Shown here in pieces: positions 1 through 60,540 of a stretch of DNA of 64,000 nt. The translations under genes and the position numbers were made by a program. The stretch is from Callorhinchus milii (taxonomy: Eukaryota). A model generated the notes under the pieces. That model did not search any database, was not told where the DNA came from, and saw only the letters and a list, made by a program, of their open reading frames with translations. The stretch is from positions 50,406,001 through 50,470,000 of the forward strand of contig NW_024704744.1 of the NCBI RefSeq assembly GCF_018977255.1, given 5' to 3'. Every line of letters starts with the position of its first letter. Positions within the stretch are counted from its first letter, which is position 1.

Positions 1-998
1 TATCCCCTTTATCTTACTAATGGCTATGTCCCTTTTTTCTACTGCCATGATTTTAGCCCTAATAAGTACAGCTACTCCACCGTCCTTTTTCCTGTCTCTA
101 TCCTTTCTAAATATTTTATACCCTGCAATTTTTATTTGCCAGTCCTGTTCTTTCTGTAGCCATGTTTAGGTAATCCCTACTATATCTGGTTCCTCACTAC
201 AAATTATTGCCTCCAGTTCTCCTGTTTTATTTCAGATGCTGTGTACATTGCTATACAGACAGTTTAATTTGGTTTTATTAGTTGTTCCTCTCACTTTATT
301 TTTGACAGTCTTCTTATACTTCTGTTCTATAATTGTATTAATTTCTTGACCATTTATGTTCTTTATTCCTTAGTTTCTGTCTGACCTATACTCTCATCTC
401 CTATTTCCTTTATATTTGGGCTTATGTAATTTCCTTCTGATCCCTTCCCCTTTTTACTAGTTTGAAGCCTTTGCCACAGCCCTATTTACCCTTTCCACAA
501 GGACTCTGGTCCTATTCCGGTTCAGATGGAGCCTGCCCCATTGGTACAACTCCTTCCTGTCCCAGTACTGGTGCCAGTGTCCCATGAAATGGAACCCTTG
601 TTTCCCACACCAATCTTTCAGCCATGTGTTAACTTTCCTAATTGGTTTTTCCCTACTCCAATTTGCAAGTGACTCGGGTAATAATCCGGAGATGATTATT
701 GAGGTCCTGTCGTTTAATTTCGCTCCTAACTCCTGAAACTCCCTCTACAAGACTTCCTTCCCCATTCTTACCTATGTTGTTTGTCCCAACATGGACCATG
801 ACAACTGGATCTGCCCCATCCCTTTCCAAATTCCTCTACAGCCTCCACGAGATATCCCTTACCCTGGGCCCAGGCAGGCAACACACTTTTTGGGACACTC
901 ATTCTCAGACATTTCCTGCAGACGTGACAGTCCGGGACAGTCTCACAGTCCACAAACTCCCACATGCTGCATTCCCGACACACTGCCTGTGCTGTCAT
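1..998 (-). mobile_element. CR1-clade LINE 5' part: ORF1 (zinc finger + SGNH esterase) and start of ORF2 APE endonuclease, degenerate, runs off the window
   Basis: Minus-strand translation: ORF1 MTAQAVCRECSMW..HVCRKC (CxxC..CxxC), VCCLPGPRVRDI, VVMVHVGTNNIG, VNTWLKDWCGKQGFHFMGHW..RLHLN. ORF2 (270->1) CLYSNVHSI*NKTGELE..DIVGIT*TW..GYKIFRKDR..GGVAV. In-frame stops present. Confidence 0.9.
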
Positions 999-1426
999 TT
1001 TTATTCATTTTATTAGTTATTTATGTAGTTCACTTAGCACCTCCTTCCCCCTTTGCACCTAATTCTCACTCTCACCCAATTCCTTCTCACTCTGACTCCA
1101 GGTCACTCCATTGGGTTCTGTTTCTACCTTTCAGCCTCTCCTCTGTCAGGTATTATCAATGAGATCTTTCACCTGTAACACAGTCAGCGGCTAGATTTAC
1201 ATCTTCAAAGAGAATGTCAGCCTCCTTGCTCTCAGGAGGAGGACTATTATGCAGCCGACATCGATGCTGAGGAGCCAGGATTGAGAGAGATATGGTAAAA
1301 TGAGGCCATTGATCTTCTCTTCCTTTCCAAATCCCCGGCTCCCACACAATAGTCTGCCTCTACAGCAAAAAGTACAGCTGCACGTCAAAACTCAGAGGCC
1401 AAGTTAGATAATGGAAGAGTGGCATA

Positions 1427-1815
1427 ACAATTTACATTTATATAACACTTTTAACATCAGGAGGACAACTCAAAGCACATCACACAAGTGACAGGGGGCC
1501 TGAGCTGGGTACATGGTGGAAGAACTGAGGGGAGGTTAAGGTGGCCGAAAGCTCAGTTGAAGAGAAGGGTTTTGAAGGCAGAGAGTGAGCAGGTGAAGCA
1601 GAAGGGATGAGTTTCAGTGGGTGTAAAATTTTAGAACTCATTCAGACAGTTGGGTCAGTGCAACAGTGATCCTGGAATCAAGCAAAGAGGCAGAGAGAGA
1701 GAGTTGGGAATCATCCATGTACATGTGGAAGTGGACTCTGTGTATAGATGATGTCACCATTGTCACTGCAAGCACTGGAGAGATGCAGAGGAAGGAGAGA
1801 TGGAAGAGGGAAGTG
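1427..1815 (-). mobile_element. L2 LINE fragments (3' tail joined to an RT fragment)
   Basis: L2-type tail at 1427-1620 resembling other copies in the window; ORF 1638..1964 contains HFHMYMDDSQL (YADD motif relic). Confidence 0.75.
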
Positions 1816-2479
1816 TAGCATTGTGAGGCACCTTGTAGCAAGGTTTCTGCCCCCAGTAAAATTATGGAATGTTTTCCCATTAACTCCACAAATTTCATCA
1901 ATCGTCTTGATTTAGAGAAGTACTGTCCTGTGCAGAATTTAGGAGTCCTTATGCATTCATTCATACTGAGGTGTATATGTTTGGAGGGGATATTTGTTAG
2001 TGGTGTATTGGAAAGACATGAAAGGAGGTGGAGATGTTTCCTTTACAAATACCGAATGTTTTATGTATGATTTCTGTTCCTATGCAGTGTCTGAATGAAA
2101 CAAAATGAACCTGAGATGCACAAAGCTTGTTTTTGCTTTGCTTGCCCTGCTTTCATCCTTTAATCATGCATTGCACAGAGGAGCTATTTGTGAAAATGAA
2201 ACTGCTGATGTATTGCCTTAAAAATAAACTACTATGCAGCGGAGGTGGAGTAAAACCATGGATTATATGAGGAAGTGAGAGTTGTGGACGTACCAAAATT
2301 AAATAGTGAGGTCAGAAAACACGAAATGATAAAAATATAAGAAATTGAAATGTTGGAGGTAAAAAAAGGACAGAATTCAATACAAATCCAATGCCAAAGA
2401 CTGATTAAAAATCTTGGAGAGTGAAGGCTGGATGTACCAAGAAATAAACACAAATAAAAGCCAGCAAGTAGCAAAACAC

Positions 2480-2590
2480 AAATTGGCCTACAAAGTACAC
2501 AGTCACTGTATTTTACGGTAAATCCTCTGAAGTTCTTTAAAACACATTCCTGACATGAAAGTCGCAAACTCAAATGCAAGGATTATTATT
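2480..2590 (+). mobile_element. SINE 3' tail fragment
   Basis: Ends in caaatgcaaggattattatt, the tail shared by many SINE copies here. Confidence 0.65.
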
Positions 2591-2739
2591 AATTAAATAG
2601 AATAGACTGTCTGTGAGGTCGGAGGTCTTGTGAAAACGTAAGATTGATCTATGATGAAAAGGTGAAAATCAAAAGAGAGATTTAGGCGAAAAATATTCTA
2701 AAAGTCCTACCCTATCTTTCCACAACAGCATCAAGTTTT

Positions 2740-2970
2740 TTTTAATAAGTCCAGCATCCTGGTCTCTAGCAACTTTCCTTTTATCCCTCTGTGTAAATAA
2801 TTATTTTCCAAGGTCTGTCCTAAAATTCATGACTTGGTGCTTTCTTGCCCTTCTGCCTTGATATATCTGAAAGTGTTGTCCTGGGTTTACTTTTTCTATC
2901 CAGTTAACCATTTTACATACCTCTATAAATTTTCTTTGTGAAGGCCCTTTTGAAGGCTGAAAACTATCAG
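2740..2970 (-). mobile_element. CR1 ORF2 C-terminal fragment
   Basis: FIEVCKMVNWIEKVNP..F..GRRARKHQ..FRTD resembles the CR1 C-terminal DLIEVYK..RTRGH region. Confidence 0.65.
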
Positions 2971-4049
2971 TGGGGAAACGTTCCAATGAGCGTTAAGCTC
3001 AGTGCCTTTGGTGATGTGCGATTATAAAGGGAAATCCCATAAGTATTCGACATTGGCAAGGTGATGCATGTAACTCTTACTGGAATTTTTCCCTGTTGTT
3101 GACTCAGTTGTTTGGTTCAAAAGTACAGAGAGTAGTGAAGTTAAGGTGTGGACAGAAAAGACTAGCTTACCTGCTTAGCCAAATTTTAAGTTAGGAACCC
3201 GTGAACAGAGAAAACAAAGTCATTTTTTTTTAAAGCTTGTTACCTTAATAAGGCAGAAAGACATCATTTTGCATTGGTTCAACAAACATAGTTACATTCA
3301 GCAGGGTTACGACCACAATATCGGCAGTTATGCTGACGTATCGTAATGTCACTACTGTAATGACAATATCAAAATTCATAAGTTTATAAGCGATAGGTGA
3401 ACATCTCTTGTTTCTCTTTTTGCTGTAACACTGATAATAGTGGGTGTTGAATCAAAAAATAAAGTTGAATTTCTAGCAGATGTATTGCAGCTGCATTCTC
3501 ATATCGTTGCCATCTATTCTTCTCTTTTGCTTTTTTTCCAACGTTGCAGGAATTGCTGGAACTGAAACAGTCAAGGTTGAGTGACTTGAACTGTAGAAAA
3601 CAGTAGGAAAGCGAAAGTTGTACTTGCTCTCACCAGCTCAGATCGAACACCAGGCATGCCCAACTCTGACTGAACAAAGTATAGCTTAGCTATACCTCTT
3701 TTATCATTGTTCTTTTTTAAACATCAGGTTGATCCATGCAAATCTGCACATTCTCACTGACCTAATAGTTGTTTACTGGCTGAGAGCAACTTACAACTTA
3801 ATTCACCAACAACTTAATTCTTCAAGGCACACATACTGTCATTTTCCCATAACATTTTGTCTAGAGTTATACCAACCCTATTCCCTGCTACATAAATCAC
3901 TCTTAGATACGAATTCTACAATTTAACACAATTTAATTAGGCTTATAGTTTCTACAAGTCATTTTAATACTAGCCAGCATAAACATTCTTAACTGAACTC
4001 AAACAATATTTTAAGCAATACTATATTTTTGATCACAGCACAGTGTTCC

Positions 4050-4760
4050 TCATCTGTCTAACACTGGGGATCAGCCTTGTTGCTCTCTTCTTTGATGTTT
4101 GGGCAGTGCCCTTATGCCGCAGAAACCAGAACAATATTTAGTACTTTAGGTGTGGCTAAACCAGAGAACTGTAAAACTTGAGCATTACTTGTGAGGATCT
4201 GAAATCAACTGATTTAGCAATATAGCCCACATCCTGTTCTGTTTGTTTATTGCTGTGTCACACTGATTGGTGATTAGCAAGACAACCAACACTCCAGGTT
4301 TCTTTCAACTTTCCTGTTGTCAAGTTCGGTTCAGTCCACAAAGTACATGTGTCTGCTGCTATTTTTACTTCCAATATGACATGCAGGACCACCCCAAATA
4401 GAATACACCTCAGTTGAGCGCAGGTTCCCTTTGCGTGTACTGGGGGCCCACAGTATGCCGTCCTCCAGCACTGACTAGCCAGCTTTACACCCTGAAAGAT
4501 TGACCAACTTCCGTGTCATCAGGTTGCCTCTGATGTCACTTCTTGTGTGTTATGCCTGAGAATCCCAGTGCAAACACTCCTCTATTTTGATCTAGCTTCC
4601 CTAAGGTTACCTTCTTCTTCATTTCTTTTAGCCAGGTACTAATCCATACGCACATCTTATCCAAAGGAATTTCTCATGCAGGACTTTATCAAAGACCTTT
4701 TGGATGTTTATGTATACTATGCCATACAGCTTCCAACTCTGAAATTGAGATAGCATCTTC
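4050..4760 (-). mobile_element. Old CR1 RT fragments
   Basis: Minus strand near 4680-4730 reads GIVYINIQKVFDKVLH (CR1 RT motif VYLDFQKAFDKVPH). Confidence 0.65.
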
Positions 4761-5119
4761 TCAGAAAAGGTCTTTCAAATCCGTGATAGATGTCATTTAT
4801 TTAGTTATTTTCGGTTGATACTCTTTCATTTTATATAAATAAATTTTCCATGCTAAATTTGCTATAGTTGTAAGTTGTGAACATGGATACAATATTTGCT
4901 TATTTTAACAGAGTCTAACAGACCTTCTCAGAGGTGACTGCCTCAAAATGACTATTGGCTTGAAATTCAAAAATGAATGTCACTTGGCTCAGTTGGTAGA
5001 CCACACAAACCTCTTATACACCAGGGTACAGTTTTTCGCTTTTCGATTTATCTGCTTTGAATCACTTAAATTCTATGCTTCACTAATGGCCTTTGTAAGA
5101 TGTGTAAATGAAGTGATTC

Positions 5120-5380
5120 AATAATAATACTTGTATTTCATATAATGCTTCATCATGTCAAAGATTTGCAGATTAATTCACACCAATGTCCTACTAACTG
5201 CCATGAGTGAATTACCATATTTTTTATCTGGAGGAATTTTGGTCAGGACACCAGGAGAAACTCCCTTCTCTTTTCGAGGAGTGTTCTGTATTACATGATT
5301 CAATGTCCCAATATGGGATTTGATACCCCAACCTTCTGACTTAGAGGCAAGAATGCTACCAACTGAACCAGGGTATCAGT
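5120..5380 (-). mobile_element. Deu-domain SINE relic
   Basis: ggtcaggacaccaggagaaactcccttctctttt and aaccttctgacttagaggcaagaatgctacc match the reverse of the copies at 21975 and 31290. Confidence 0.7.
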
Positions 5381-6689
5381 CATTTGTGAATTTCATGCTA
5401 ATCTACAGTCTAAAATAAAAGACCAGTGAAGAAATCTCACAGGGGAAAAAAGCCTAGTTATTTTTCTCAACGGGCTGCTTCAGATGTCTCTGATTTAGAA
5501 TTCTCAAGCTGTGAATTTCACTGTGATTCACAAACGGCAAGTCCCAAACCTGAAATTCCAATAAATATAACAAATCCAGTTTAGGAATATTGTCAAATAG
5601 AACTCAATATTAAAGTCTCAGAGCTCGTATTGCATATATTGGATGTCAGGGAGCCCGAACAGAGGAGCCCGAGAATGTGGCTACATCAATATTAACACTT
5701 GCTGTAAATCAGGAATTGTTCCCAATCTATTTCATTACTCTTATGCATTAATGGGTTCTTCACATGCAGTATGACACTGTAAATTTAACTTTACTACTAA
5801 AAATTCTGGATGTTCAGGATTGGGTTTGACATCTCTGGAGGGCAACTTTATTACCGTACTCATTAACATTCACACCCTGGGCTCCAGTTTAATGTAATCA
5901 CTGACTATGAATATGTGGGCAAATCCCAGCAACAGGGATCCATGAAGACTGAGCATTGGAAATCTGACCTCCCAATTTGTCAAATCTGAGATGACTGTGA
6001 TTGCAAAATTTCCCTGAAATCTATTAAAATGCAGCATTGGTACTCCTCAACTAAATTAGGCCGCCTACCTTTGTGAGTATTTCTACCCTTTGTGAATCCA
6101 CTTAAAAAGATACAGCAGATAGATTTACTGTTTAGTAATTTATCTCCAAAATATATATCAATAAAGTAATCTGTGGTGTTTTATTCCCACACATTCCACT
6201 AACCTGCAACTCACTACCTGTAACATTTGAAGTTACAGAAATGCTTTTTGATCTTTCTGTATCTTTTTTGCTGCCAACTCCAAATTTTTTGCTTGATCGT
6301 TTTTTTGCAACTTATCCTTTATTATGAGCAAAATTAAAGAATGACAATTTTGAAGAATGTCTGGAAAAGGTACATTAATGTGAACCTCAATTTATTAACT
6401 ACCACAGGGCCTAATAGAGTAAGTATTTAATGTGATAGCTATTACGCTTGTCCCTTGGATGTCAGGACCTTCTGCTTTGTGACCCTATCCTGGTGAGTGC
6501 TCCAGGGAGGTTAAAACAGTAGCATATTTATATGCTGAATAAGTCTCTCTAAAGAGGTAGGAAATAAAGAACTCTGAATAGTCGTATCTGCAACTAGTCC
6601 TGAAAGTTCTGCATTCGTATCAGAGGTGGCTGGTGCTCTTGTCGCTGTGGACTCAATGCTCTCAGACACAGAATCTAATGACACTTGTT

Positions 6690-7028
6690 AATAATAATAA
6701 TAATCCTTACATTTAATATAATGTCTTATCACATCTTTGAGATGTTGGAAAGCGCTTCAAAGAATGTACTGAAAAGTGAATTGACTGTATATTTTGTGGG
6801 CGAAATATAGCAGCCAATTGCACACAGCAGTGTCCCACAAACATGTCATGGGTTGAGTGACCAAATTATTATTTATTTAGTGTTTGAAGGGATTATTACC
6901 CCCGTAAAAGCGATCTGCCAATCAACTAACAACCAGGTTCCTACTTCCTGCTAGGTAAACAGAAGCGGGTCAAGTAAAGACCTTTTCGCTTGTAAGGCAA
7001 GCGCTCTAACCAATATGCTACAGGACTC
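6690..7028 (-). mobile_element. tRNA-headed SINE, long variant, partly deleted
   Basis: (aat)n tail, body shared with the 58468 copy including aaccaggttcctact..ctgctaggtaaacag, and tRNA head relic gctacaggactc. Confidence 0.85.
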
Positions 7029-7039
7029 TATGTTCTGGT

Positions 7040-7235
7040 CTATGTCACGTTAATGGAGGTGCTGCTGTCACAAGTGTCAATTTGTGCTGCTTCCCACACA
7101 CCACCAGTTGAGGGCATCTATGTTCGCTTACACACAGTAACTACACTTTACAGTAAAACTCCTCTGAAGAGCTGTGAGATGTTTCAAGGCCAAGATAAAG
7201 CACCAAATCAAATGCCGGAATTATTATTATTATCA
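7040..7235 (+). mobile_element. SINE relic (Deu-like body and tail)
   Basis: gaggtgctg..; tail ctgaagagctgtgagatg..tcaaatgccggaattattatt. Confidence 0.55.
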
Positions 7236-8589
7236 TTCACAATCTGAACGCCCCTTCAGAAGTCAGCACACAGCAATTTCAGACAATATTCGTTGGTTTT
7301 ATACATGAGCAAAACCACCCAATGTTAGTTTGGTCCAGGACCCTATAAAGCACAATGAAAATACTCTCTGATTGGGAACATTAGCGTTGGCCACTTGAGT
7401 AAACAATGTTGCCAGTGACTTCAGCCAACTTCAGGCTCAACTATTCTGCTAAAATGGTATGTGTAGCGAGGGGGTTCACACTCGAAACTAGTTGATAATT
7501 ATCAATGGAAATTCTGATGATTTTGCAGTGTGGTAAGAAATTGTTATGAAACAATGCACTTTTCACCCCATCACACAGATGGTTGCAAAATGGCCCCTGA
7601 TCAGAAAAATCTTGAATCAGGAGTATTGATTTTAATATGCCGCTCCAGACGGTGGCTTAAAACGCATTTTAAAAGTTTAAAAATATATATGTTGAAAAGC
7701 TATTCTCCCGGCTAGGGTCAGTTCTGAAAAAGCTGAAAAGATAAACAAATCTTCAGATTCATGGAGAAAGTAGAGCCCAGCAACAGGCCATTCAGTCCAT
7801 CCAGCCCTACAACTGTCTTTAGAGATACGTCAAGATCAACTGCATATCGTGTCCTCATCACATGCAATATATTTTGCCCTGTAGTTCTAAAAATTTGATT
7901 CTGAACATTTGTAAAAATGTGCATGTGGTGGTTTTTGTGTTGATCTGCAATTCACAAACACCAGAAAAACATGTCTGCAGAAACCCACACATTTCCACAT
8001 ATTGCCTCAAAAGGGGTGTGTTATCACACAAGGTAAAATGCTGATATTGTTCATGAGCGTCGTAGGCATACCTGTAATCAGTCATCTTTTAAACCAAAAA
8101 GAATGTAGTATCAAGAGAATCAAACTTTAGTGTCTGAGCCACAATTTAAAAGATTTGGCCTCAATTCGCATAAACTGCACTGAAACTAAGATTACAACTG
8201 TAGGGGAAAGATATGTTTATTCACATAATAAATGTGTCTAGGTGAAAAACAGAAAGCCACATTAAAACCCCAAAACCCCATCAATGTGTTATCCTCACAC
8301 CTATAACAGAGTTTAACTGCAAGCTAATAAAAACACACCCAAGTAACGCCCACCAGCAGCTAAAAATGAAACTATAAACTACTAGCTCTGACCATTTTTT
8401 TNAAGAAAATATGATTTTTTTATTATAACCTCCAATGTTAGTTCTTGGGCTCAGAAGGTAACTCTCTGACCATTAGTAAATGTAATGGGTTTTGTAGTAT
8501 GAGCTTCATCGTTAAAAATCCCATTACGATTGAACACACTGAAGGTCAGTAACTTTACTGATAATATAGTATACAATAGTATACAATAT

Positions 8590-9180
8590 ACATTCATACA
8601 GTGAATTTCATATTAGGGGTCACCTCAAAATGCTTTGTAGTGCTGGATGGGTACCAAGCTGGGGATAGGAACCGAGGAAGGTGGGAGGGGAAAGATGACT
8701 GAAAGTGCATTCGAAGAGGTACATTTTGACTTCCATCTTGAACAAGGGGAGGGAAGAGCAGAGGGAGTTGGAGGTACTCCAGGATGCAGTTCAAGAGAGC
8801 AGGGGCAACGTGATTGAAAGCCTGCCCGCCAATGATGGGGCGGATAGAGTGTAGGGGATAGGGTGGGCGGGATAAGGGTGGGGGGGACATGAAGCAAGTC
8901 ATTGTTCGTTGATTGAAGGGAGTAGCCAAATAGTGCAGTTGGAGGAGGTCACAGAGGTAGGGTCAGACAAGACTTTTTGAATGTGAAAACAACAATGTTG
9001 AAATTGATGGACTGGGGTATGGTACAGCTAAGTGAGGGTGATAGACTTGTGATGCCTGGTGTAGAAAAGACATGAGGTGCAGATAGGTTGTAGCTGGTGT
9101 AGGGAAGCTGAGTAATTTAGAGGCTCAGGTGACCAGCATTGACAAAGGTCTTACAGAAGGCCTCTTCCTTAGTCAGAGCT
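8590..9180 (-). mobile_element. L2 LINE 3' fragment
   Basis: PIIGGQAFNHVAPALLNCI and RWKSKCTSS/FKxxLKTxLF-like relics; L2 3' tail. Confidence 0.75.
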
Positions 9181-9719
9181 GAGGTACTACAGACAAAAAG
9201 GAGGAGAGTAAATGTACTCTGACATTGAAAAGGAAATACAATGTACTCTATTTAAGAGAAAGTTTTCTCTGTGTATACATTTCTTTCACATTGAATTGTA
9301 TGCCAATACATTTTTATGAAGTTTTACTTACCTAACATTTATTTTCAGCTGAAGTGAAACTTCAGGAATCTGAATGTTACTCTTGTCTATTTGTCTTGAA
9401 GTTTGACCCATTCATTATCCACTAAAAATGGCCCGTAGTCACAATGCAAAAGCTGGGGATAAAGGTAGCTGAGAATAAACACAAAGGCAAATCTTTAATT
9501 TGTACTACACATACATGGGGAATTAGGGGATTCCTTTTATTTTGGCTAGCAGGCCATTGAAATATGTTCACTTGTTATTTAGAATCTTAAGCTTAAGGTA
9601 CAAAGTCATAGAGCAATTGAGATTGAGAAAATAAACCCAGTACAATACTTTTGGTTGCACCAAGACAGTAGAACAAGTCACACAAGTTTAGAGTGCTTAA
9701 CATTGGAGTTGTCAAGCTT

Positions 9720-9790
9720 TGCCACTGTTAAGCGCTTTGAGACACTACCCCGTGTGAAGGGAGGTATATAAATGCAAGTTGCTGCTGTTG
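9720..9790 (+). mobile_element. L2-type 3' tail, second subfamily
   Basis: gccactgttaagcgctttgagacactacc..aatgcaagttgctgctgttg, near-identical to 25057-25125. Confidence 0.7.
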
Positions 9791-9794
9791 AGTT

Positions 9795-9960
9795 GCAAAG
9801 GGCAATTTCAGAACAGACAACAGAAAGTATTTCTTTACCTAGAGAGTATTTAATGACTGGAACAGGTTACTAGGAAGAGTGGTTGAAGCTAGAACTCAGG
9901 ACTCATTTTAAAAAAATGTTTGCTGCTGTGATGGGAGGTTAGTTATTCTCGAAAGAAGAA
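9795..9960 (+). mobile_element. CR1 3' fragment
   Basis: Translates KGNFRTDNRKYFFT*RVFNDWNRL (CR1 C-terminal FFTQRVxxxWNxL). Confidence 0.75.
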
Positions 9961-10466
9961 ATCAAATGAACCAATCTTGTGATCTCATGTAAATTAATGG
10001 TGCCACAAATTTTCAATTTTTCAGCCAATCATAATTATTTTGAAGTTTAATGCAATCCATTATAAAACTTTAATTTCCATTAGCTAATCTCTGAAACAAG
10101 GTTTCTAAAATAGGCGCATGATAGGCCCTATTGTACTTGTGCTTATGTGATTGTAACACAATCTGGTTATTCAGTGTAACCCAAGTATTATAAATCACAT
10201 TTATTATGTATCATTCTGAACAATGCTACATGACAAAAACACACCAGAAAAGCATACTGTCACTTTTGTGTCGTTCAGACACTCTTTTCTGAAGAACAAT
10301 CATCAAGTAATTAAAAATTCTTTTCATTCACTTGATGGTTGTGCAAGTCTCTTGGCAATGCCAACATATCACATCCTGGAGCATACTGCTGAACTTCCTC
10401 ATACTCTGGTTCCATTGTACATATAGATTCTTCAACAAGTTAAAGTAGCAGATTCCCCTATGATAT

Positions 10467-10786
10467 GGAGTCCTGTAGCTCAGTAGTTAGAGCACTCGCT
10501 TTGCAAGTGAGAGACCTGAATTCAATTCCAGGCAGAGGGCGAAACCTTGGTCAAGTTTCCTTACTCCACACGCCTAATAATAATCCCTCCAAAACGAAAA
10601 ACAATAATAAAAATTGGTCATTTTCAATCCACGACTGTTTGTGGGACATTGCTGTGCGCAATTGGCTGCCGCGTTCGCCCACAAATATACAGTCAATTCA
10701 CTTTACAGTGTGTTCTGTGAAGCGCCTTGGGACATCCTCCCGATGTGAAAAAGCGCTATATCAAATGCAAGGATTATTATTATTAT
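10467..10786 (+). mobile_element. Full-length young tRNA(Ala)-derived SINE with L2-type tail, short variant
   Basis: A-box tagctcagtag, anticodon arm ctcgc-tttgcaa-gtgag (UGC), B-box-like aattcaattcc, tail gcgctatatcaaatgcaagg(att)n; close copy at 18239-18556. Confidence 0.9.
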
Positions 10787-10904
10787 ATCAGATAATGTAA
10801 CATACAGCAAAGATAGTGTACATGTCCCCTGGGTTTATAATCATCAATATTTCCATCTTTGTTTCAGTACTCCACATGTACACTTAACCAGCCTTGTTCC
10901 TTTA

Positions 10905-11050
10905 TCCTTTCAGTTCTGACGAAGGGTCATGGACCCGAAACGTTGACTCACTTTCCTTTCTCGATAGATGCTGCCTGATCTGCTGAGTGTTTCCAGTGAC
11001 TTCTGTTTTTGTTTCAGATTTCCAGCATTTGCAGTGTTTTGCATTTTGTT
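10905..11050 (+). mobile_element. Penelope-like (PLE) terminal-repeat fragment carrying a hammerhead ribozyme motif
   Basis: ctgacgaagggtcatggacccgaaacgttgact..gatgctgcctgatctgctgagtgtttccag; minimal hammerheads are known from PLE repeats; related inverted relic at 60420-60540. Confidence 0.75.
10912..10948 (+). ncRNA. Minimal type I hammerhead ribozyme motif
   Basis: Stem I agtt(10912-15)/gact(10945-48); CUGACGA 10916-22; stem II gggtc/gaccc with atg loop; GAAA 10937-40; palindromic ACGU stem III; GUU cleavage triplet. Confidence 0.75.
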
Positions 11051-11109
11051 CTTTTATCTGTCCCCCTAAAAGTATATCCTACTTCATTTTTCAGGGTTGA
11101 AAATGTTTC

Positions 11110-11270
11110 TTGACATATCATATTCTCGTCCTTACCTTCAAGGCCCTTCATGGCCTTTTCCCCTCCTACCTCTCCAACCTGCTAACATCTTATCAATCTG
11201 TCCACTCCCTCCACTCCATCCATTCAGCAGGCTCCAGCCTGCTTCATGTCCCCCGCCCGGCCCACCCCAC
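11110..11270 (+). mobile_element. Host L2 3' fragment, left half (continues at 14148)
   Basis: ILVLTFKALHGLFPSYLSNLL..AGSSLLHVPRPAHP; interrupted at cccaccccac. Confidence 0.85.
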
Positions 11271-14147
11271 TAACAACAACAACAAAATTACATTTATAGA
11301 TCGCCTTTCACGTCGGGAGGACGTCCCAAAGCGCTGAACAGTCAGGTGTCGGGGCCCAAGCATGGGGAAGGGGTGGTGTAGGGGTGAGGGAAGGCAGAGA
11401 GGGTGGGAGGATGGCTGAAGGCACGGTCAAAGAGGAGGGTCTTGAGGCGTGCCTTGAAGGAGGCAAGGTAGAGAGCGAGGCAAAGGGAGTTCCAGAGGGT
11501 GGGGGGAGAAGCTGAAGGCCCGACAGCCGATGGTGATCTTGCCCTATCCCCCTACTCCACCGTCTTGTAAAGAAGAGTATCGAAAAGAAGGGTCTTGAAA
11601 CCGGCCTTGAAGGAGGTAAGGGAGGAAGCGAGGCGAAGGGACTGTGGGATGGAGTTCCAAAGTGTGGGGACAGAGGCTGAAAGCCCAGCCACTGATGGTA
11701 GGGTGGGTCGGGCAGGAGACATGGAGCAGGCCGGAGCCCGCTGAACGGAGGGTGTGCGCAGGTTGGTAGGGAGTCAGCAGGTCAGAGAGGTAGGAGGGGG
11801 CAAGACCATGGATGGCCTTGAAAGTGAGGATGAGGATCTTGAACTCGATTATCTGGGGGATGGGGAGCCAGTGGAGTCGGGCGAGGGTGGGAGTGATGGG
11901 GTCACGGAGCCTGGTGCGTGAGAGTACACGAGCTGCAGAGTTTTGGATGATCTGCAGGTTGTGAAGGGAAGAGTTGGGAAGGCCGATGAGGAGGAAGTTC
12001 CCGTAGTCGAGCCTTGATGTGATGAACACGTGGGTGAGGGTTTCGGCAGCCTGAGGGGTGAGACAGTGGCGGAGTCTGGCAATGTTGCGGAGGTGGTGGT
12101 AGGCAGTGCCAGTCATGGCGCGGATGTGGGGGAGAAAGGACAGTTCAGGATCGAACAAATACCCAGATTCCTGACTGGCTCAGTGAGGTTGAGTGTGCAG
12201 CCGTGGAGGCTGATGCTGACAGCGCCTGAGATGCGGAGGCGCTGGCGTGAGCCAATCAGGAGGACCTCAGTCTTGCTGACGTTGAGTTGGAGAAAGTTGG
12301 CCCCCATCCAGGACTTAATGTCGGACAGGCAGTGGGTCAGGACGCCAGTATTCCTGAAGTTCAGGGTGGAGGCAGAGAAGTAGAGTTGGGTGTCATCCGC
12401 ATACATGTGGAAATTACCCCACATCTGTGGATGATGTCATCAAGGGCGAGCATGTAGATGGTGAAGAGGAGAGGACCGAGGACAGAGCCCTGAGGAACAC
12501 TGCACGAGACGGTGCGGGGGCTGGAGGAGAAGCTGTTTACTGTGACAAAGTGGAGGCGGTGTGAAAGGTAGGACTTGATCCAATCAAGGACAGAACCTTG
12601 AAGGTTGGGGTGGGAGGAGAGGCGGTGGAGGAGGATTGAGTGGTCCACGGTGTCAAGGTGGCGGAGGGGGACGAGGAGGTAGAGGGAGCCCTGGTCACAC
12701 ATGGTCAGGATGTTCTTTATAACCTTGACCAGAGCAGCTTCCAAGCTGTGGGCAGCATGGAAACCCGATTGGAGGGGTTCATGGAGGGAGTGAGAGGAGA
12801 GGAAAGAGCGAAGCTGGAAGGCAACGGCTCTCTCAAGGACCTTGCATTGGAAGGGGAGATTTGAGATGGGCCAGAAGCTAGATAGCTGTGATGCGTCAAG
12901 GGAAGGTTTCTTCAAGGTGGGGGTGATAGTGGCTATTTTAAGGGGGGAAGGAACAGTGCCAGATGACAGGAAGAGGTTAATGATGTCGGCAAGTATTGGG
13001 ACAAGGAGGTGGAGCTGGGATTTAAGGAGAGGGGTGGGGATGGGGTCCAGGGTGCAGGTGGTGGGCTTCATGGAGGTTACAATGGTGAAGACAGAGGAAA
13101 GGTGACAGGTTCAAAGGTGTGGAAGGACAGATGGGTAGTTGTCGAGTGGGTAGTTGTGTGGGGTGGGGGTAGGGAGGGGTTGGAAGTTGGGAGGGCAGAG
13201 GCAGCTGAGCGGATTCCCTCAATTTTGGACTCGGGGAAGTCCAGCATTTTCTCGCAGTGAAAGAATTTGCGAGGCATGTCGGGGAAGGTGGAGGAGTCGG
13301 TTGGTAGAGAACTGGAGCCTGGGGTTGCCTTTCGTTTCCAGGATTAACCTGGAATAGAAGGATGATTTGGCTGAGGCGAGAGCGGAGCGGTAGGTTTTGA
13401 TGAGGTCCAGCCAGATGTGGCAGTGGACCGTTAGGCTAGATTTGAGCCAAGTGCATTCGGCAGACCACCCCTGGCCCTTAAGTGAGTGGAGGTGGCTGGT
13501 GAACCATGGTGACGATCGGGAATAGGAGGCAGTTTAGGAGGTGAGGGGTTCAAGTACGTCGAGTGCAGTGGAGAGGGTGCTGTGGAGAAGAGTGAGTGCA
13601 GCGAGTGTGCTGGTGCGAGGGGTGGGCTAGAGGGGGAGGAGATCAGTGGACTCCAAGGCAGGGGCGAGGGATTGTGGGGAGATCTTCTTCCACGGGCAGT
13701 AGAAGATGGTGATAGGTTTGGAGGCAGTGGGGAGAGGGATATGGGAGTTGAGGGAGATGAAATGGTGGTCAGAGATGGCCTTGTCAGTGATGGTGACATC
13801 CAAGATGCTGAGACCCCGGGTGATCACCAGGTCGAACGGGTGACCGTGGGTGTGGGTAGCAGAGTGGAGGTGGAGGGTAAGGTTGAGAGAGGAGAATAGA
13901 GAGGAGATGTCTGAGGAGGTGGAGCAGGAGGGGGTGAAGTGGAGGTTGAAGTTGCCTAGGATGATGAGGCGGTCGGAGCAGAGGCAGAGGGAAGCAAGGA
14001 GGGTGGAGATGTCAGAGATGAAGGTGGGAGAGGATTTTGGGGAGCAATAAAGTAAGAGACTTTTTAGAGAGAGGTGGGAGGAATGGCAGATGGTAAGGTG
14101 TTCAAAAGAGGGGAACGAGACGGTGGAGTAGGGGGATAGGGCAAGAT
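11271..14147 (-). mobile_element. 5'-truncated L2 LINE ORF2 (APE + RT + C-terminus + 3' tail), frameshifted pseudo-copy
   Basis: APE motifs IILGNFNLH, THTHGHPFDLV, ISDHHFI; RT motifs [36 protein letters not shown]; C-terminal SRLDYGN..IQNSAAR..LHWLP; (gtt)n tail. Confidence 0.95.
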
Positions 14148-14402
14148 CACCATCGGCTGTCGGGCCTTCAGCCTCTTCCCCCACCTTTGGAACTCCCTTT
14201 GCCTCGCTTTCTCCCTTGCCTCCTTCAAGGCCCGCCTCAAGACCCTCCTCTTTGACTGTGCCTTCAGCCATCCTCCTACCCTCTCTGCCCTCCACCCTCC
14301 CTAATCCCAACCCCTCCGCTCAGGTCATAATCCCTGACTGTTCAGCACCTTGGAACATCCTCCTGATATGAAAGGTGCTTTACAAATGTCATTTTGTATT
14401 GT
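14148..14402 (+). mobile_element. Host L2 3' fragment, right half with 3' tail
   Basis: caccatcggctgtcgggccttcagc..ttcaaggcccgcctcaagaccctcctcttt..gaaaggtgctttacaaatgtcattttg resumes the 11110-11270 fragment. Confidence 0.85.
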
Positions 14403-14884
14403 ATACGTCATGTTGAATCTGTTATTAACATCACAATTTCTAGTTGATGGCTAAAGACTAAAAAAAGTTTTGAACCCTTCCCCCACCTCAGGTAAGAGTG
14501 CTACCATCTGAGCTAGGCTGAAAATAGAGAGACTCAAGGGATGCTTTAAAGCTGGGATTCGTTGATGTGTCCATCAATCACACAAATGTTTGCATTCATC
14601 ATGAAATACAGTTCACTTTGATCTTAAGTTTTAAGGTACTTACTTTATTGGGTTTTATAGGTTACTCCACTTAAAAGCAAATGGACTGAGACAAATTTAT
14701 TCCCCCATGTTTCAGGTTTTTAAATCGTTTGTGGCAAACAAAAGATACATTCTTGATTAGCAAAGTTTAATTAAGAATAGTTTTCTTGCAAACTTGGCCT
14801 GGCTTCTAAGAGAAATTGACTTGTAATACATGATCACTGAGTATCAAGGGCAATACATGGACTCAAAATTGGCTGCTGGAAGGA

Positions 14885-15122
14885 AGGCGGTCTCATCTGC
14901 CTGTCAGGTGGATGTTAAAGATCCCATAGCACTATTCGAAAAGAGATAAATCCCCAAAATAAAATTGGTCACTCACTCTATGGCTGTTTGTGAGACATTG
15001 CTGTACCCAACTGGCTGCTGCATTCGGCCACAAAATACAGTAACTCCAGTTTACACTATATTCTGTGAAGCGCTTTGAGACATGATAAGACGCTATATCA
15101 AATGCAAGGATTATTATTATTA
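14885..15122 (+). mobile_element. Deu-domain SINE, 5' truncated
   Basis: tgcctgtcaggtggatgttaaagatcccatagcactattcgaa body plus standard tail. Confidence 0.85.
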
Positions 15123-15149
15123 GAGGAGAGCAATGAGGAGAGCCCCCAG

Positions 15150-15450
15150 TGGTAGATGGATGAGCGATGAGTAATGAATAGACAAGCTAGGGCTCTTCAG
15201 ACTTGAAAGACGGAGAATCAGAGGGGCCTCATAGAAGTGTACAAAATTTTAAATGTGATTGAAAAGGTAAACCCAGATCAATACTTTACAATGATTTACA
15301 GCAAAGGTAGTAGAGGCCAGGAACACTGGACTCATTCAAAAAAGCAGCTTGACCCATGCTGTGATGGGGAACGGTAGGGTTGGTGTTCTGCAGGGTTGAG
15401 ATGGGCTGAAGAGCTTTCTTCATCCAGATCAATCTTGGGATCTTATGGAA
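15150..15450 (+). mobile_element. CR1 3' fragment
   Basis: LGLFRLERRRIRGGLIEVYKILNVIEKVNP-like translation. Confidence 0.75.
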
Positions 15451-16204
15451 TACTAATGTATGATACAGTAATGTCTTCCTTTTCGGCTATTTGTTGGAGA
15501 CTTCTGATAAATACTATTTATATATTATCACAGCTGAAAAATAAATACTACAGTTTAGTGAATCAAACTCTGGATTGTAGTTAACCTCTGTATATTTAGG
15601 GCATTATAAACTGCTTAACAAACGATTGAAGTAAAATTTCTTACTGACTTCATAGATGGCAGTCTGTGGTCAGCCCACACACTACCTTGTGTGGGTGTAT
15701 AAATGTTACAGAACCTGCTTTTTGCCCTGTTACTGCTAAACGTATATTTTCTTACTCCATTACTGTTATACCTAGTGAATTATATAGAAAAATCCCAGAA
15801 CAGAATTTCTCTTGATTTTAGAGTTAACTTGTCTTAAAGTTTCGGTTTATGCAAAATTTGGGAACTTTCTCAAATTGGAAGATGTTTTCCCATCATTCTT
15901 TTGCAAGACTATAGCAAATTGCTTTCTAATTTGCAACTGAATTTAAGAATTGTCCAAAATTCTTTGCACTCTTAAAAACTAAGGCCATTAAGATTTGGGG
16001 GTCTCAGGAGTTTGCCCAAACAAATTATTTAACTCTGCTCTGTACTCTGTGCTCTGCTCCCTATACAAAATATTCAATGAAAAAAGTTCAGTTAGTTGTT
16101 TAAAGTCTTGTTTAAAAATATCAAGGAGAAATATGTGAACATTTTATAAAGATGAGGTTCTTTCCCTTTTGGGTGACATGCTGAACCAAAGATTCTTGTG
16201 CCAA

Positions 16205-16460
16205 AGAATCTTGTTAAGATTCTTAACAGGAGGTTGTTAAGTATCCCATGGCAGTATTCAAAAAAGGCACAAGAGTTTTTCCCAGTCCTGGCCAAGTCAG
16301 TGTTCCAAATTAATTGGTTATTCACCTCATGTTGTGTTGGGATCTTGTTGGCATAAATGGTTAGTGAATGGCTAACCAAACTATAGTTACTGCATATTAC
16401 AGTGATTGCCTGTGAAATGTTTTGAGACATTTCAATGTGACAATGTGCTATAAAAACGAA
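16205..16460 (+). mobile_element. Deu-domain SINE relic
   Basis: atcccatggcagtattcaaaaa..agttttcccagtcctggccaa..tgttgggatcttg. Confidence 0.7.
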
Positions 16461-17977
16461 GTTTAAAAAAAGCTTATTGGAAAGTAAAGTATAGTGTCAG
16501 ATCAGGCCTTCAGTTAGAGAATGGGAAAAAAGTTACCAATTCGGAGAAGGATGTAAGATTTGCAATCATAAATTTCAGTACATCCTTGAAAACATATATT
16601 GATATTGCTGCCATTGATTGTTAGTCATAATGTCCAAGTGGTCAAGAACAAATGAAGAGGGTACTGGAGGCTCACATATAGCAGGCAGTATTACCTGAGA
16701 TGGCAAGTCTACAACACAAATGGCATTTATATAGCAACCCGAGGCACTGGGTATACTCCAATAGAGTCAGCTGTAAAGCAGTTTGGATAGGTTTTGACAT
16801 GACAAGGGTGCTCCACAAATTCATGTTTTTTTGGCCAGAATGGAAGACCAATGCTTGGGGATTGTCAGACTCATGAGGAAGGCTGTAAGGAGTAGTGACA
16901 CCTGTGGTATGAAGAATACTCCATAAACAGCATTGCACTGCCAGTACTATTGAAAGTCACCACTGTCCTCTTTGTTTTAACTCGAGGGAAATCTCAAACA
17001 TTAACTGTGGGCATGATCGGAGTCAACCAGTACTTTGTATAATGCTGAAAAAAGGAGATAGCAGAGCACTCTTTTGACATCCCACTGAATGATACTGGAA
17101 TGACATATGAAAAGTGCAGATTTTTTTTCTCCATTGCTATAAGGAAGCCCTTGCTTAACTCCTACAATTACAACACAAATTTCATCAGGAACACACTGGT
17201 ATAAGGGAAACAATTGAACTTGTGTTGCGCCATTCTGTTGTCATATTGGTTGTTTTTTAAATCATCTGAAAAGTATATTTCTCCTGGCTCAACATGAGTT
17301 GCAAATTGTTATAGTGTAGTCAGTGTGACACCTGAACAGGAACCAGCAGGATCAGCTGAAAGAGGCAGGTAACTGTCTTCCAAAAAGTGCAGGGCATCAT
17401 TGCCTGCTCTCATGAAACCATTTGGGTTCCCACATCAAACCCATTAACACACTGTCTCTGCCTAAAAATGTCACGGGTCAGAACTGAAGTCATTAAGACG
17501 AACTAAATCCATATAGCTTGCCATTGAAAGCACTGTCTGACGAGTTTTCTCACTGTTTGTCCAGCTAGGACCACCTAATCCATTAGGTTTTTGGCTTGAA
17601 TGGATAACAGTAGTTGTGAGAAGAATCCCTGTCTCTGGTGACTGGTCTGAGCTTCCAAGTCCTACCAATAAAACAGGCTGGCTGGTTTCGGTTGGCTGGT
17701 TGTGGCTGGTCTGTCATCACCAGTGCCCATGAGTACTACGGATCAGTTGCTCAGAAACCAGACGTCACAGGGTTGACTCGATTCCGACATTCCTTTGCCA
17801 AGCATGTCACCATGAAGCCAGTTCAGCTTGAAGGAGACCACACTTACCTTTCCCCAAAGACTAGAACCAAAAACATCAATTAATACAGGATTTAGGTCCA
17901 TACATGGGTTCCACAACTAAGAGAACTAATTTTTTAAAAAATCAGAATCAGTGTTTATCCAGAATTAAGATGTCTTA

Positions 17978-18052
17978 ATCAGCGCCTTGGGACGTCCTCC
18001 TGACGTGAAAGGCGCTCTATAAATGGAATCTTGTTGTTGTTATTGTTGTTGT
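17978..18052 (+). mobile_element. L2 3' tail
   Basis: agcgccttgggacgtcctcctgacgtgaaaggcgctctataaatg..(gtt)n. Confidence 0.85.
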
Positions 18053-18238
18053 CTGAATTAAGAACTCAACAGTAGAGTTGGGTACGGTATAAATAGGAAG
18101 CAAGGATACTAACTAATGCAGTATTACAGTTTTAAGGTAAGTTGTAAATAGCAAAAATAGGAAACACCATAGCCTCAACCAGGGTACTGAGAGGCATTTG
18201 TGGTGCACAGAGAAGGATCAGAATAAGATGCAATCATG

Positions 18239-18556
18239 AATAATAATAATAATAATCCTTGCATTTGATATAGCGCTATTCACGTCGGGAGGACGTCCCA
18301 AAGCGCTTCACAGAACACACTGTAAAGTGAATTGACTGTATGTTTGTGGGCGAACGTGGCAGCCAATTGCGCACAGCAATGTCCCACAAACAGTTGTAGA
18401 TTGAAAATGACCAATTTATTATTGTTTTGGGTTTTGGAGGGATTATTATTAGGTGTGTTGAGTAAAGAAACTTGCCCAAGGTTTCGCCCTGCCTGGAATT
18501 GAACTCAGGTTTCTCGCTTGCAAAACAAGTGCTCCAACCACTGCGCTACAGGACTA
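18239..18556 (-). mobile_element. Full-length young tRNA(Ala)-derived SINE, short variant
   Basis: Reverse complement is closely similar to 10467-10786 over its length. Confidence 0.9.
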
Positions 18557-20329
18557 CACATGAAGCTTGCATGACAAGCCACTGTAGGCCAGTGAAGTGA
18601 AGTAGTAATAGAGGGGTGATAGCTTTGAATATTTATAGTGGCAAATTCCTTCTGGTGACACAGCAGAGATGCAGCAAATATATTGTTGTTATCCAGTAAT
18701 GTCCTGATGATGTTATCTTTGATATACTGTATGTCAGCACTGCTAACTGAGTCACACAATTCAAATTGTGAATAGAACCTTGCAAAGATTATGCTGCAAA
18801 TGATGCACAAAAAAATAAAAGTGAAGGTAACAGTGAATGGGGGAAAGTAAAAATGACATTTACGTTAGATAAATTATGTGGTTTTAATATGGCTGACACA
18901 GTATTTTACTGTAACTCGATTATGCTGCGGCAGTGATTTTTCTAACATGGTGTTTACAATGTGTGTTATGTGTAAAGAAAAAAGCTGTTTGAAACAGTTC
19001 CATTTGGAAACTGCATTTTCACACCTTCCTTGATGCAAATTCAGAACAGCAGATGTAAAGGATGACATCAATGCATTTGCTAAACTATAGACCAGCGTCC
19101 CCACTTTCCTGGATGCCAAAGGCTTCCAGGGATTGAGTGGATAAATGGGAAATAATCATTTTGATGCAGAATTCCTGTTAGCATTTGGTATTGTTTTCTT
19201 CAACAATGAATATGATCAAATTTTGACCTTTCCAAGAATTCCATTCATGAGAATTCCAACTCCACACAAGTCACTGATGAAAACTGGGTATATGAGCTCT
19301 TTTTTTCAGTAACAAAGCATCAATGCCAGCCTATGGCTAATGAGGGATGTTTGCCATTAAAGCTATTGAGTGCCAGTGATCGCAAGAACGGGACAATTAC
19401 TATTGGATTAATACAATATTTACATCAAGGCTTTTCATTTGAAATCATCGGTTGCTCCAACTGCACAGCTACTGAAAAATAAAATGGGGTCAATTTTTTC
19501 ATGTTACATATCAACATGTAAAAATAGGAGGGATCTTATCCATTCTTTTGCAAACTCCTAAGGAATTGTATTCATTGATCTCATACATGGTTCCATCTGC
19601 CTGAAGCAGTGTTTCAGTTGCAATTTGTTTTTCCTTTTAAAGTGTACTTTCAGACTTACTTGCTGGTGTTCTGTGCTCTCTCACTTAGATTCGCAGAAGA
19701 CTTTGCATTGTGGCTTCTGCATGCCTGATCTGTCAGGCTCTGCACTTGCTTACAGATATTATGTTTCTCAGAATAGGAAAATTCATATTTTATTTCTTCC
19801 TTCAAAATGGAGTGTTTCATTCATCCCAAAATTATATCTGATAAGAACTGGACTGAACAATATCAACATTAGGATTTGACCTCTGGTGTTCTGAACGGTA
19901 GTACAAATATTATAGACTACAATTGCAAATTCACTTTTTTTACATCAATAAAAACAATGAATCTGATCTAAATCAATTATATTGCATAATGGGTATAAAT
20001 GCAAAGCATAAATTGTGATTTTTGCACTGCACTCCGGATTAAAAGTGCATTAAAGTCACGTTGGTAGCAAAATCTGGTAGGAATTGCGATGGACTCCCAT
20101 CCTTTGATACACACTATCTGGTACATCTGGCTAACAATATCATGTGAACAATGTGACATTGTAAACACTATAAATATGTTCAAATAGATCAAAAAATCTG
20201 CAATGGGAATAGACCCAAAATATTAATGTCAGGATTATGTTTCATCGAAGGCACTTAAACCTTAATCCTAATTGTGTATTTCTCTAAGGCTATGTGGGTT
20301 AATTCACTGTGTCATGCATACTGGGCAAA

Positions 20330-25486: not shown

Positions 25487-25620
25487 GCAATTGGCTGCCA
25501 CGTTCCGCCCGCACGCGCGCAACACCGTCCAGCGCGTTCTGTGAAGCGCTTTGGGACGGCTCAGCAGTGCGATAAGGCGCCGCATCGAACGCAGGGATTA
25601 TTATTATTATTATTATTATT
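25487..25620 (+). mobile_element. SINE 3' relic at the CpG island edge, GC-shifted
   Basis: gcaattggctgccacgttc..ttctgtgaagcgctttgggac..ggattatt(att)n. Confidence 0.85.
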
Positions 25621-25953
25621 GCTTTCACTCAAAATAAAGCAGCAGCACGAGCCCCAGTGCCCAGCCACGTGCCACTGTGTCTGAGAGACACAGAGAGGGG
25701 GGGGGAGCCTCCGCGCATGCGCCGTGCCCGCCTTGAGTGCCGAGTGATGGCATGCCAGCCGGGCGGAATGTGCGCACGCGCACTCTCTCTCTCTGTGTGT
25801 GTGTGCGCTCTCTCTGTCTGTATTCCCTCGTTGGGGGGGGGGGGAGCGTCGGAGTGACGGGTTGGGCGCAGGCGCACTGTGGCGCCGGTGGTGGCTGGTG
25901 GTGGCGGCGGTGGTGGTGGTGGTGGCGAGGCTCGTGAGGGCTCTCTCGGTGAC

Positions 25954-26024
25954 GCGCTCGCTCGCTCGCTCGCTGGCTGGCGCGCGCGCGCGCTGGCTGG
26001 CTGGCGCTCGCTCGCTCGCTCGCT
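25954..26024. repeat. (GCTC)n-(GCTG)n-(CG)6-(GCTG)n-(GCTC)n compound repeat
   Basis: Read directly; (CG)6 at 25981-25992. Confidence 0.9.
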
Positions 26025-26128
26025 CCGGCCCGGAGTCCGTCGCGAGCGCGTGCGTCAGAGGGGACGTCAGCGACCGAATGTCAACAAAGAATGAGCGCGG
26101 CCGCGCGGCGCGTCACTCAGTCAGTGAG

Positions 26129-26485
26129 TGAGAGAGAGAGAGAGAGAGGGGGAGAGAGAGAGAGAGAGAGCAGCACATGAACACAGCGCTGGACCAGAGG
26201 CTCCACCAAAAGCACTGCACCTCCACGTTGTGAAGAGAGCCGAGCGCACTGCAAAACATAACTCAAAATAGCACGCTCTGTGCAACGCACACACCCCCCC
26301 CCCTTCTCCCCACCCACCCACCCCCCCCTCTCCTCCCTCCCTCCCATCTCCTCCCTCTATACCCGCAACCACTCACACACACACACACACTCTCTCTCTC
26401 GTGTGTGCACACACTCATTCACTCGCACATTTCATGTACACACACACACTCCACTCACTCCCTCACTCACACACACACACACACG
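26129..26485. repeat. Microsatellite cluster: (GA)n, C-rich tract, (CA)n/(CT)n
   Basis: (ag)n 26131-26170, pyrimidine tract 26293-26357, (ca)n 26374-26389 and 26469-26484. Confidence 0.9.
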
Positions 26486-27330
26486 GAGTCAAAACAACAG
26501 TCAGCCGTCCTGCTCGGCTCGGCTCGGCATTGCCTCCGTGTCGGGTGACCCGGGGCTCGATTGGCATATGTTCCCTTTGGCCGCACGGAATCATGAGGCG
26601 CTCGTCGTGAACTTGGAGACGGCTCGGAAATAATCGAAAGTTGCCCGGGGGGGTGGGGTAAGGAGGATGCAATTTGTTTATTTTGTTTATTTTTTTTCGG
26701 AGGGGGGGAAAACAAAAAAAAAAAGGGAGGGGGTTGTGAATGACCCCTGTGATCCCGCTGCTACTGTGATGTGATTTGCTGGGAAAAAGGGGAGGCAGAG
26801 TGTCCGGGCTGACGGTCGGGGTTTGCTGGGGTGGAGCTGTGTGTGTGTGTGTGTGTGTGGGGGGTCTCGAGCTGTCACGGTTTGTGCGGAGACGCTTTGC
26901 GGGAACGGGCACTCTCACTCAGTCCGGACCCGAGGCCTGGACCGACCGAACAGAAATAAACAGCAGCCAAAGAGGCAGAGCTGCGGCCCCTCTGATCCGA
27001 TCCGCACGGCATCCTCCAGCGGCTCCGAGGCACATTCCTGCACGGATCCGCTGGTGTTGTGCGTGTGCGTGTGTTGTGTTTTTTTTTCCGCGGTGGTTTG
27101 TTTAGCAGCCGATCGTCCGCGGCGCCGGTGCGTGGAACAGGACTGTGAACATGCAGGGATCCCCCCCCCCCCCCTCACACACACACACACACACATGTTT
27201 TTGGCGTGCACTTTGCTTGGGAAGAGCACCGGCTGTGCAGCAGATTATTTGTGCAGTTGCAAACTGTTGTGGATTTGCATGCCTTTCACCTGCTTTACTG
27301 AACGATCAACCTGGGGTGTGAAAATAGGTA

Positions 27331-27331
<1 letters not shown>

Positions 27332-27362
<31 letters not shown>
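27332..27362. repeat. (AAT)n microsatellite, probably a minus-strand SINE tail relic
   Basis: (taa)n followed by cgcatttgata, like the reverse of the SINE tail. Confidence 0.7.
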
Positions 27363-27363
<1 letters not shown>

Positions 27364-45590: not shown

Positions 45591-45885
45591 TGGTGTCCTG
45601 AAGCTCAGTGTTTAGAGCACTCGTCTTGCAAGCGAAAGACCTGGGTTCGATTCCTGGCAGAGCGAAATCTTGGGCAAGTTTCCTTACTCCACATGCAATA
45701 GTCCTTCAAGAAAAAAAATTATAATAATAATTTGGTCACTCTATCCACAACTGTGCATAATTGGCATTTACACTTCGCCCACAAATATACAGTCAATTCA
45801 CTTTACAGTATATTCTGTGAAGTATTTTGAGACGTCCAGAAGACGTGAAAACGTTATTTCAAATGCAAGGATTATTATTATTATA
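45591..45885 (+). mobile_element. Full-length tRNA(Ala)-derived SINE, short variant
   Basis: gctcagtgtttagagcactcgtcttgcaagcgaaagacctgggttcgattcc (intact B-box), ttgggcaagtttccttactccac, tail. Confidence 0.9.
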
Positions 45886-60419: not shown

Positions 60420-60540
60420 ATAAAAAGAAAACACAAAATGCTGAAAATCAGGAATAAAACCAGAAAATGCTGGAAATCCACAGCAGAGCTGATGGAGAAA
60501 ACAAACATAGCTGTTCAGAATGATCCTTCATCAGAAACCC
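60420..60540 (-). mobile_element. Decayed second copy of the Penelope-like hammerhead repeat
   Basis: Minus strand ttctgatgaaggatc..tctgctgtggatttccagcattttctggttttatt..cagcattttgtgttt resembles 10905-11050; GAAA box decayed. Confidence 0.6.

Follow-up and report, generated by a model that had tools for sequence, protein, structure and literature searches.

A solo 138-bp hammerhead repeat of Callorhinchus milii read as an end-copy of a Neptune-like Penelope element, probably made from uncut RNA

The window, the whole stretch of 64,000 nucleotides that was analysed, carries a 138-bp repeat that is probably a solo retro-copy of the hammerhead-tail module of a Neptune-like Penelope-like element (PLE), likely made when reverse transcription was primed inside the 5′ part of an uncut RNA and ran off its start, and probably inert today. 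In the mechanism proposed, the RNA of the element would be capped and would start at A10912, where stem I opens; the reverse transcriptase (RT) of the element would prime internally in the 5′ part of its own RNA, as happens in vitro with the anole element PAc, and would run off the RNA start, where a copied cap would leave an extra G. Both sides of the cleavage site would have been retained because the template was not cleaved, and the ribozyme would work, if at all, in the RNA of the parent element, as a dimer or with the protein of the element.

The locus itself is of little weight, being one decaying copy among thousands, but the statistics of its family bear on what PLE hammerheads do, a question described as open in the literature on these elements (PMC8557442, PMC11167929). 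Should transcription begin at the hammerhead and the integrated copies always span the cut, cleavage would be no step in the making of copies and may limit or switch the fate of the RNA; the base-precise predictions are a start at the A and priming near +65 and +100. What is added here is an unbiased count of copy ends, together with the excess of G and the linker motif; the family itself may already be listed in the supplements of PMC4209133 or of bioRxiv 10.64898/2026.07.22.740005.

The hammerhead motif

A complete minimal type I hammerhead of 37 nt, read from the letters and by a descriptor scan, lies at 10912-10948 on the forward strand and consists of the following parts.

10912-10915 and 10945-10948, forward strand: stem I, AGUU with GACU, a U-G wobble adjoining the core
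10916-10922, forward strand: CUGACGA core box
10923, forward strand: extra A
10924-10928 and 10932-10936, forward strand: stem II, GGGUC with GACCC, 5 bp, loop AUG
10937-10940, forward strand: GAAA
10941-10944, forward strand: C-G-U-U, with U17 at 10944 and the predicted cut 3′ of 10944
10940-10943, forward strand: palindrome ACGU, all of stem III

Every element of the original prediction, which had placed all core nucleotides in type I order between these stems, was found at its place, and stem III is indeed reduced to the palindrome. The descriptor had no second match on either strand of the window, and 100 third-order Markov shuffles gave 0.02 loose and 0 strict matches per window. The Infernal search that had been proposed as a check went the other way, as the Rfam hammerhead covariance models left 10912-10948 unmatched at the gathering score and also at E<=10.

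Minimal hammerheads of this kind were described by Cervera and De la Pena in 2014 in the pLTRs of metazoan PLEs (PMC4209133), and the motif in the window shares with those described there the type I order, the 4-bp helix I, the unpaired base (A10923) that separates positions 9 and 10.1, the G10.1-C11.1 pair (G10924-C10936), the palindromic 15.2-16.2 (C10941-G10942), the lack of a helix III, and the occurrence mostly as single dispersed motifs from truncated elements. It differs from that description in its 5-bp helix II and in the U at position 17. By its letters the window hammerhead thus falls under the published definition of the minimal hammerhead of metazoan PLEs, as had been predicted, and the minimal motif of the family is of an already published kind; the passages of that paper drawn on here name no cartilaginous fish and do not map copy ends.

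The insert and its surroundings

The limits of the repeat, earlier put at 10905 to 11050, had to be corrected to a start at 10911/10912 and an end near 11049, with the following features around it.

10912-11049, forward strand: solo stub (hammerhead and tail, long-tail form) from a Penelope-like element that bears an endonuclease, 91-95% identical to other copies
10894-10906, forward strand: left target-site duplication, 13 bp of which one is mismatched, with 5 filler bases after it at 10907-10911
11046-11058, forward strand: right target-site duplication, its first 4 bases overlapping the T-rich end of the element
10910-10916, forward strand: initiator-like motif (CCAGTTC in the family), A10912 being the putative first RNA base
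60427-60537, reverse strand: second, degenerate family member with a broken core and no GAAA (blastn E 1.7e-4, and direct reading)
12364-13110, reverse strand: unrelated LINE RT (Pfam RVT_1, E 5.7e-14), 1.3 kb downstream of the stub

The duplication of the window copy, recognised by visual reading and scored afterwards, matches at 12 of 13 positions; of random 25-nt stretches, 0.055% contain a match like this. An automatic finder missed most duplications, this one included, because filler bases intervene. Compared with the family majority, the copy has changes at about 9 of 137 positions, all of them outside the core and the stems. The hammerhead repeat is solo at its locus, as had been said, the only other family member in the window being the degenerate one 49 kb off and on the opposite strand. 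No Penelope-type RT or endonuclease was found in the 64 kb, which agrees with the earlier statement that no RT or GIY-YIG remnant was recognised nearby, the RT close to the stub being that of the unrelated LINE.

The decayed LINE spans 11280-14300 on the reverse strand, with more copies near 51700-52300, 55000-55800 and 58800-59300. A tRNA-derived SINE, abundant and with a LINE-like tail that finishes in ATT repeats, is present at 10463-10786, 18240-18562, 45587-45883 and 58464-58836; four SINE heads in the window score as tRNA in Rfam, and elsewhere several PLE stubs sit inside the SINE. A CpG island at 25500-28300 contains an exon-like stretch at 26494-26658, which has a GT donor after it on the forward strand and is covered by contigs of three of four presumed-RNA runs. 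This stretch probably represents exon 1 of a host gene, whose start would lie about 15.5 kb to the right of the stub and point away from it, and a leftward transcript may reach the stub. On 1-20000 the presumed-RNA contigs are swamped by repeats, and nothing long or spliced is listed among them near the stub; neither the ends nor the strand of an RNA can be read from such contigs.

The family and its parent element

The 0.99-Gb genome was searched with a 156-bp query, which gave 3,351 candidates, 40 scored places lying at 91-95% identity, and exact matches genome-wide to a tail motif of 29 nt numbered at least 2,853 and those to the intact core 420, while the reversed-pattern controls had none. 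The genome-wide search proposed with the original prediction thus finds thousands of dispersed copies, and the family majority keeps CUGANGA and GAAA, the loss of which had been named as grounds for rejection.

Upstream of the hammerhead, about 10 of the first 30 loci have sequence in common. One copy, L023, has a broken frame with RT motifs, then a GIY-YIG-type endonuclease, directly upstream of its hammerhead, and the window stub is 92.8% identical to the 3′ end of this copy, the best stubs being at 91-95%. Among nine fragments scanned against Pfam, three had no match, and the best scores in fragments of other copies (RVT_1, E 1.6e-5; GIY-YIG, E 4.5e-4) were all under the curated cut-offs. 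When the search was made from the endonuclease region, hammerhead or tail sequence was present downstream on the same strand in 16 of 20 loci, so the hammerhead-tail module is linked to RT and GIY-YIG remnants elsewhere in the genome, a linkage that had been put forward for checking. Since longer copies reach these remnants upstream, the window stub would be a truncated end-copy of an autonomous PLE and not part of a retrozyme array. The earlier description as a non-autonomous repeat is accordingly better replaced by that of an end-copy, L023 being as close to the stub as the best stubs are.

In three copies (L011, L064 and L152) the N-terminal coding region follows on from the tail, which places hammerhead and tail at the 3′ end of the element and also at the front of the transcription unit, an arrangement known from published partial tandems; the ORF likely starts some 140 nt beyond the predicted cut. 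No full-length intact element was present among 40 body loci, the longest stop-free frames of which are about 300 aa. The family tail, including 10950-11020 of the window, contains acceptor-like pyrimidine runs that end in AG, one of which has ATG directly after it in the family majority; another such run lies just ahead of the likely ORF start. The family may thus retain a 5′ intron, as D. virilis Penelope does.

Of 20 body loci, 14 have a CX4CxxC linker ahead of the endonuclease (two with an internal stop). According to Craig et al. (2021, PMC8557442), a CX2-5CxxC linker is present in Neptune and Nematis and absent from Penelope/Poseidon. An assignment of the family to Poseidon was rejected on this linker, and the parent element appears Neptune-like by the linker motif only, which is a Nematis feature as well, no intact ORF having been recovered. 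With the Neptune-clade PLEs of PMC8557442 the family further shares an RT followed by a GIY-YIG domain, CCHH-type cysteines, and a hammerhead in the pLTR.

The animal non-LTR retrozymes described by Li et al. (2026, bioRxiv 10.64898/2026.07.22.740005) are similar in being PLE-derived, in their type I hammerhead, in their presence in a chondrichthyan and in their monomer derivatives; they are defined there by tandem repeats with a hammerhead in at least two consecutive units. A tandem retrozyme array was considered and rejected, as the repeat is solo in the window, the family is dispersed and no same-strand hammerhead pair occurs in 30 unbiased loci. The partial tandems at L010, L011 and L152 are junctions of the PLE type.

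Where copies begin and end

The ends were counted on 94 copies for which the tail motif served as anchor; as this motif is located 3′ of the cut, its use does not select for the hammerhead. These copies came from 90 stretches (30 loci and 60 further stretches), taken from the first 100 listed of the 2,853 matches, each with an exact match to the 29-nt motif and all within the first 31 Mb of one contig. In coordinates where 0 is the first base 3′ of the predicted cut, 24 of the 94 copies begin at -34..-31 (15 of them at -32; p 7e-10), 20 extend beyond -37, and the starts of the remainder are spread between. No pile-up of 5′ ends was found at the cut site itself (3 of 94 at -1..+1, p 0.81). The 3′ ends are bimodal, about 35 nt apart, with 46 copies ending at +60..+77 and 40 at +92..+107, and an inverted arm stands ahead of 35 of the 94. 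The window copy belongs to the class with a -34/-33 start and a long tail, its 3′ end lying inside +92..+107.

These ends match the published pLTR, tail and inverted-arm pattern of endonuclease-positive PLEs, in which heavy 5′ truncation, inverted 5′ arms, an optional tail of 30-40 bp and target duplication occur together (for the Neptune clade, PMC8557442, as regards the first three). In PAc, a Poseidon element from Anolis carolinensis, the 30-40 bp tail was traced to two internal RT start sites (Frangieh et al. 2024, PMC11167929). The present family resembles PAc, as described there, in that two such sites would bound the tail, in the position of the hammerhead at the junction of pLTR and ORF, and in the proposed use of uncut RNA as template. 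It differs in its Neptune-type linker and in an ORF that likely begins well past the cut, whereas PAc is of the Poseidon type and has its ORF start within stem II. At L143, L211, L135 and L190 the 5′ junctions restart repeatedly on the first 10-20 bases of the hammerhead, which suggests template jumps at the 5′ end of the RNA.

The proposed start of the RNA and the extra G

The pile-up of starts coincides with the motif CCAGTTC, which we take to be initiator-like from the consensus YYANWYY; the A of this motif opens stem I, which cannot lengthen upstream. Reverse transcriptases copy the RNA cap as an extra G. The base before the start A was counted in the first 100 of 242 matches with a non-C at that position, 21 that resembled mutated long copies being dropped. 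Among the remaining 79 there were 42 G, 30 A and 7 T, against an expectation of 27% G (p 5e-7). No such excess was seen before G(-32) (32 of 93, 7 dropped, p 0.18) or before C(-34) (10 of 100). Of the 42 cases with G, 40 were fetched; an inverted arm was present in 17, and microhomology explains the G in at least 4-5. An abutting duplication in five of the G cases puts the G outside the target in four (one ambiguous) and inside it in one.

The simplest reading would take the extra G for a copied 5′ cap, and from these junctions it is likely that the RNA of the element starts at the first base of the ribozyme, A10912, and was copied uncut. Counter-evidence to a start at the A is that the commonest start lies one base later, at G(-32) (15 of 94); stalling of the RT before a 2′-O-methylated first base would account for it, which is speculative. 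Penelope has internal promoters from which transcription begins within the pLTR, and this fits an RNA start at the hammerhead. The GAAACGU at 10937-10944 falls at +26..+32 from the proposed start, the position at which D. virilis Penelope has the downstream promoter element RGACGTGY, and by this analogy the heptamer might serve twice, in the hammerhead and as a promoter element. A limited literature search returned nothing relevant on a published cap-G signature or on shark PLE hammerheads.

A more far-reaching version is offered tentatively. The family RNA would start on the first base of stem I, so that cleavage would shed a 33-nt capped leader and act as a self-decapping or template-destroying switch and not in the release of monomers, and the stubs would be cDNAs like the strong-stop products of retroviruses, recording the cap and two priming sites.

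The explanation that survives next best after copying of uncut, internally primed RNA, and which is nevertheless rather unlikely, is that the copies are ordinary 5′-truncated ones primed at the 3′ pLTR, the 5′ pile-up reflecting either stalling of the RT at the hammerhead stem or a splice acceptor at the CAG. A CAG after a pyrimidine run does lie exactly at the pile-up, an intron of D. virilis ends at helix I according to PMC4209133, and the modal start is G(-32) and not the A. Yet 40 fetched flanks have no upstream exon sequence in common, an RT moving 3′ to 5′ would be expected to stall on entering the stem and not after completing it, and the G excess is confined to the copies that start at the A.

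That the stubs are instead a SINE-like or retrozyme-like non-autonomous family, amplifying itself from stub transcripts and mobilised in trans by the protein of the element, is improbable. Their ends are fixed and target duplications are present, short copies far exceed long ones (first-look candidates numbered 3,351 with the stub query, 1,109 with the endonuclease query and 108 with the RT-start query), the Penelope promoters are internal, and in a rotifer pLTRs alone are enough for mobilisation in trans. Stub and long copies are equally alike, however; the 5′ ends also scatter through the hammerhead and far upstream, the tandem arrays that retrozymes require are lacking, and a stub ending at a priming site would need a read-through RNA.

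Is the ribozyme active in the window?

Among 49 copies that span the core, 21 have all core bases and 6 have the core, stem II and the palindrome. Conservation averages 0.94 both in the core and immediately beyond the cut, the CpG positions being the worst; G12, which lies in a CpG, is changed in 25% of copies. The core decays neutrally, like the neighbouring sequence, and the window copy would be intact by chance, as is expected at about 6% divergence.

In a nearest-neighbour model, which leaves out tertiary contacts and protein, the best fold of the 37-nt monomer is a rod that pairs the core GACG with CGUU (-10.8 vs -8.2 kcal/mol), and the active double hammerhead of the dimer, at -14.5 kcal/mol, lies 13 kcal/mol above the dimer minimum of -27.9. 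In the whole stub, stem I is outside both the minimum and the centroid folds, and the stability shows no excess over shuffled sequences (z 0.29). No same-strand hammerhead partner was found in the window, nor a same-strand pair in the 30 unbiased loci of 3 kb each. In the published work, a Schistosoma minimal hammerhead is described as inactive alone and weak as a dimer or trimer (PMC4209133), and the PAc hammerhead as needing the protein of the element and as dispensable for insertion (PMC11167929).

The original prediction had the window copy cleave in trans with another transcript of the family, as a repeat-encoded RNA-processing signal of the host, and this is now very improbable: the whole core and the two stems survive here, which is true of just 6 of the 49 sampled copies, GUU is among the listed cleavable triplets, the initiator-like start is kept, and dimers of minimal hammerheads cleave in vitro, weakly, according to PMC4209133, but such intactness is what chance provides, the core decays in CpG fashion, the models favour the inactive rod over the active dimer, a partner is lacking, the copies do not start at the cut, and the PAc RNA-seq of PMC11167929 is reported to contain no reads ending at the cut.

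Covariation across copies, the absence of which had been named as a refutation, makes an unfair test because the copies decay after insertion and only subfamilies can covary. One subfamily does have 10.1-11.1 changed from G-C to A-U (8 of 56) together with 2.1-1.1 from U-G to U-A, a single inherited event in which the C to T may be CpG decay, and three copies have A-U at 10.2-11.2.

Other minimal-hammerhead families in the assembly

Most of the 958 pattern matches in the assembly belong to two other minimal-hammerhead families, with a 7-bp stem II and visible covariation. They are found at L105, L106 and L113-L130, on contig C5 near 68.0 Mb and on the small contigs C75-C154, and one of their loci, L114, has a Poseidon-type RT (RVT_1, E 1.6e-11) and an endonuclease without the linker. 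The CpG observed/expected ratio is 0.54-1.05 at these loci vs about 0.3-0.5 at loci of the main contig, and the two families may be young unmethylated arrays or the DNA of another organism in the assembly.
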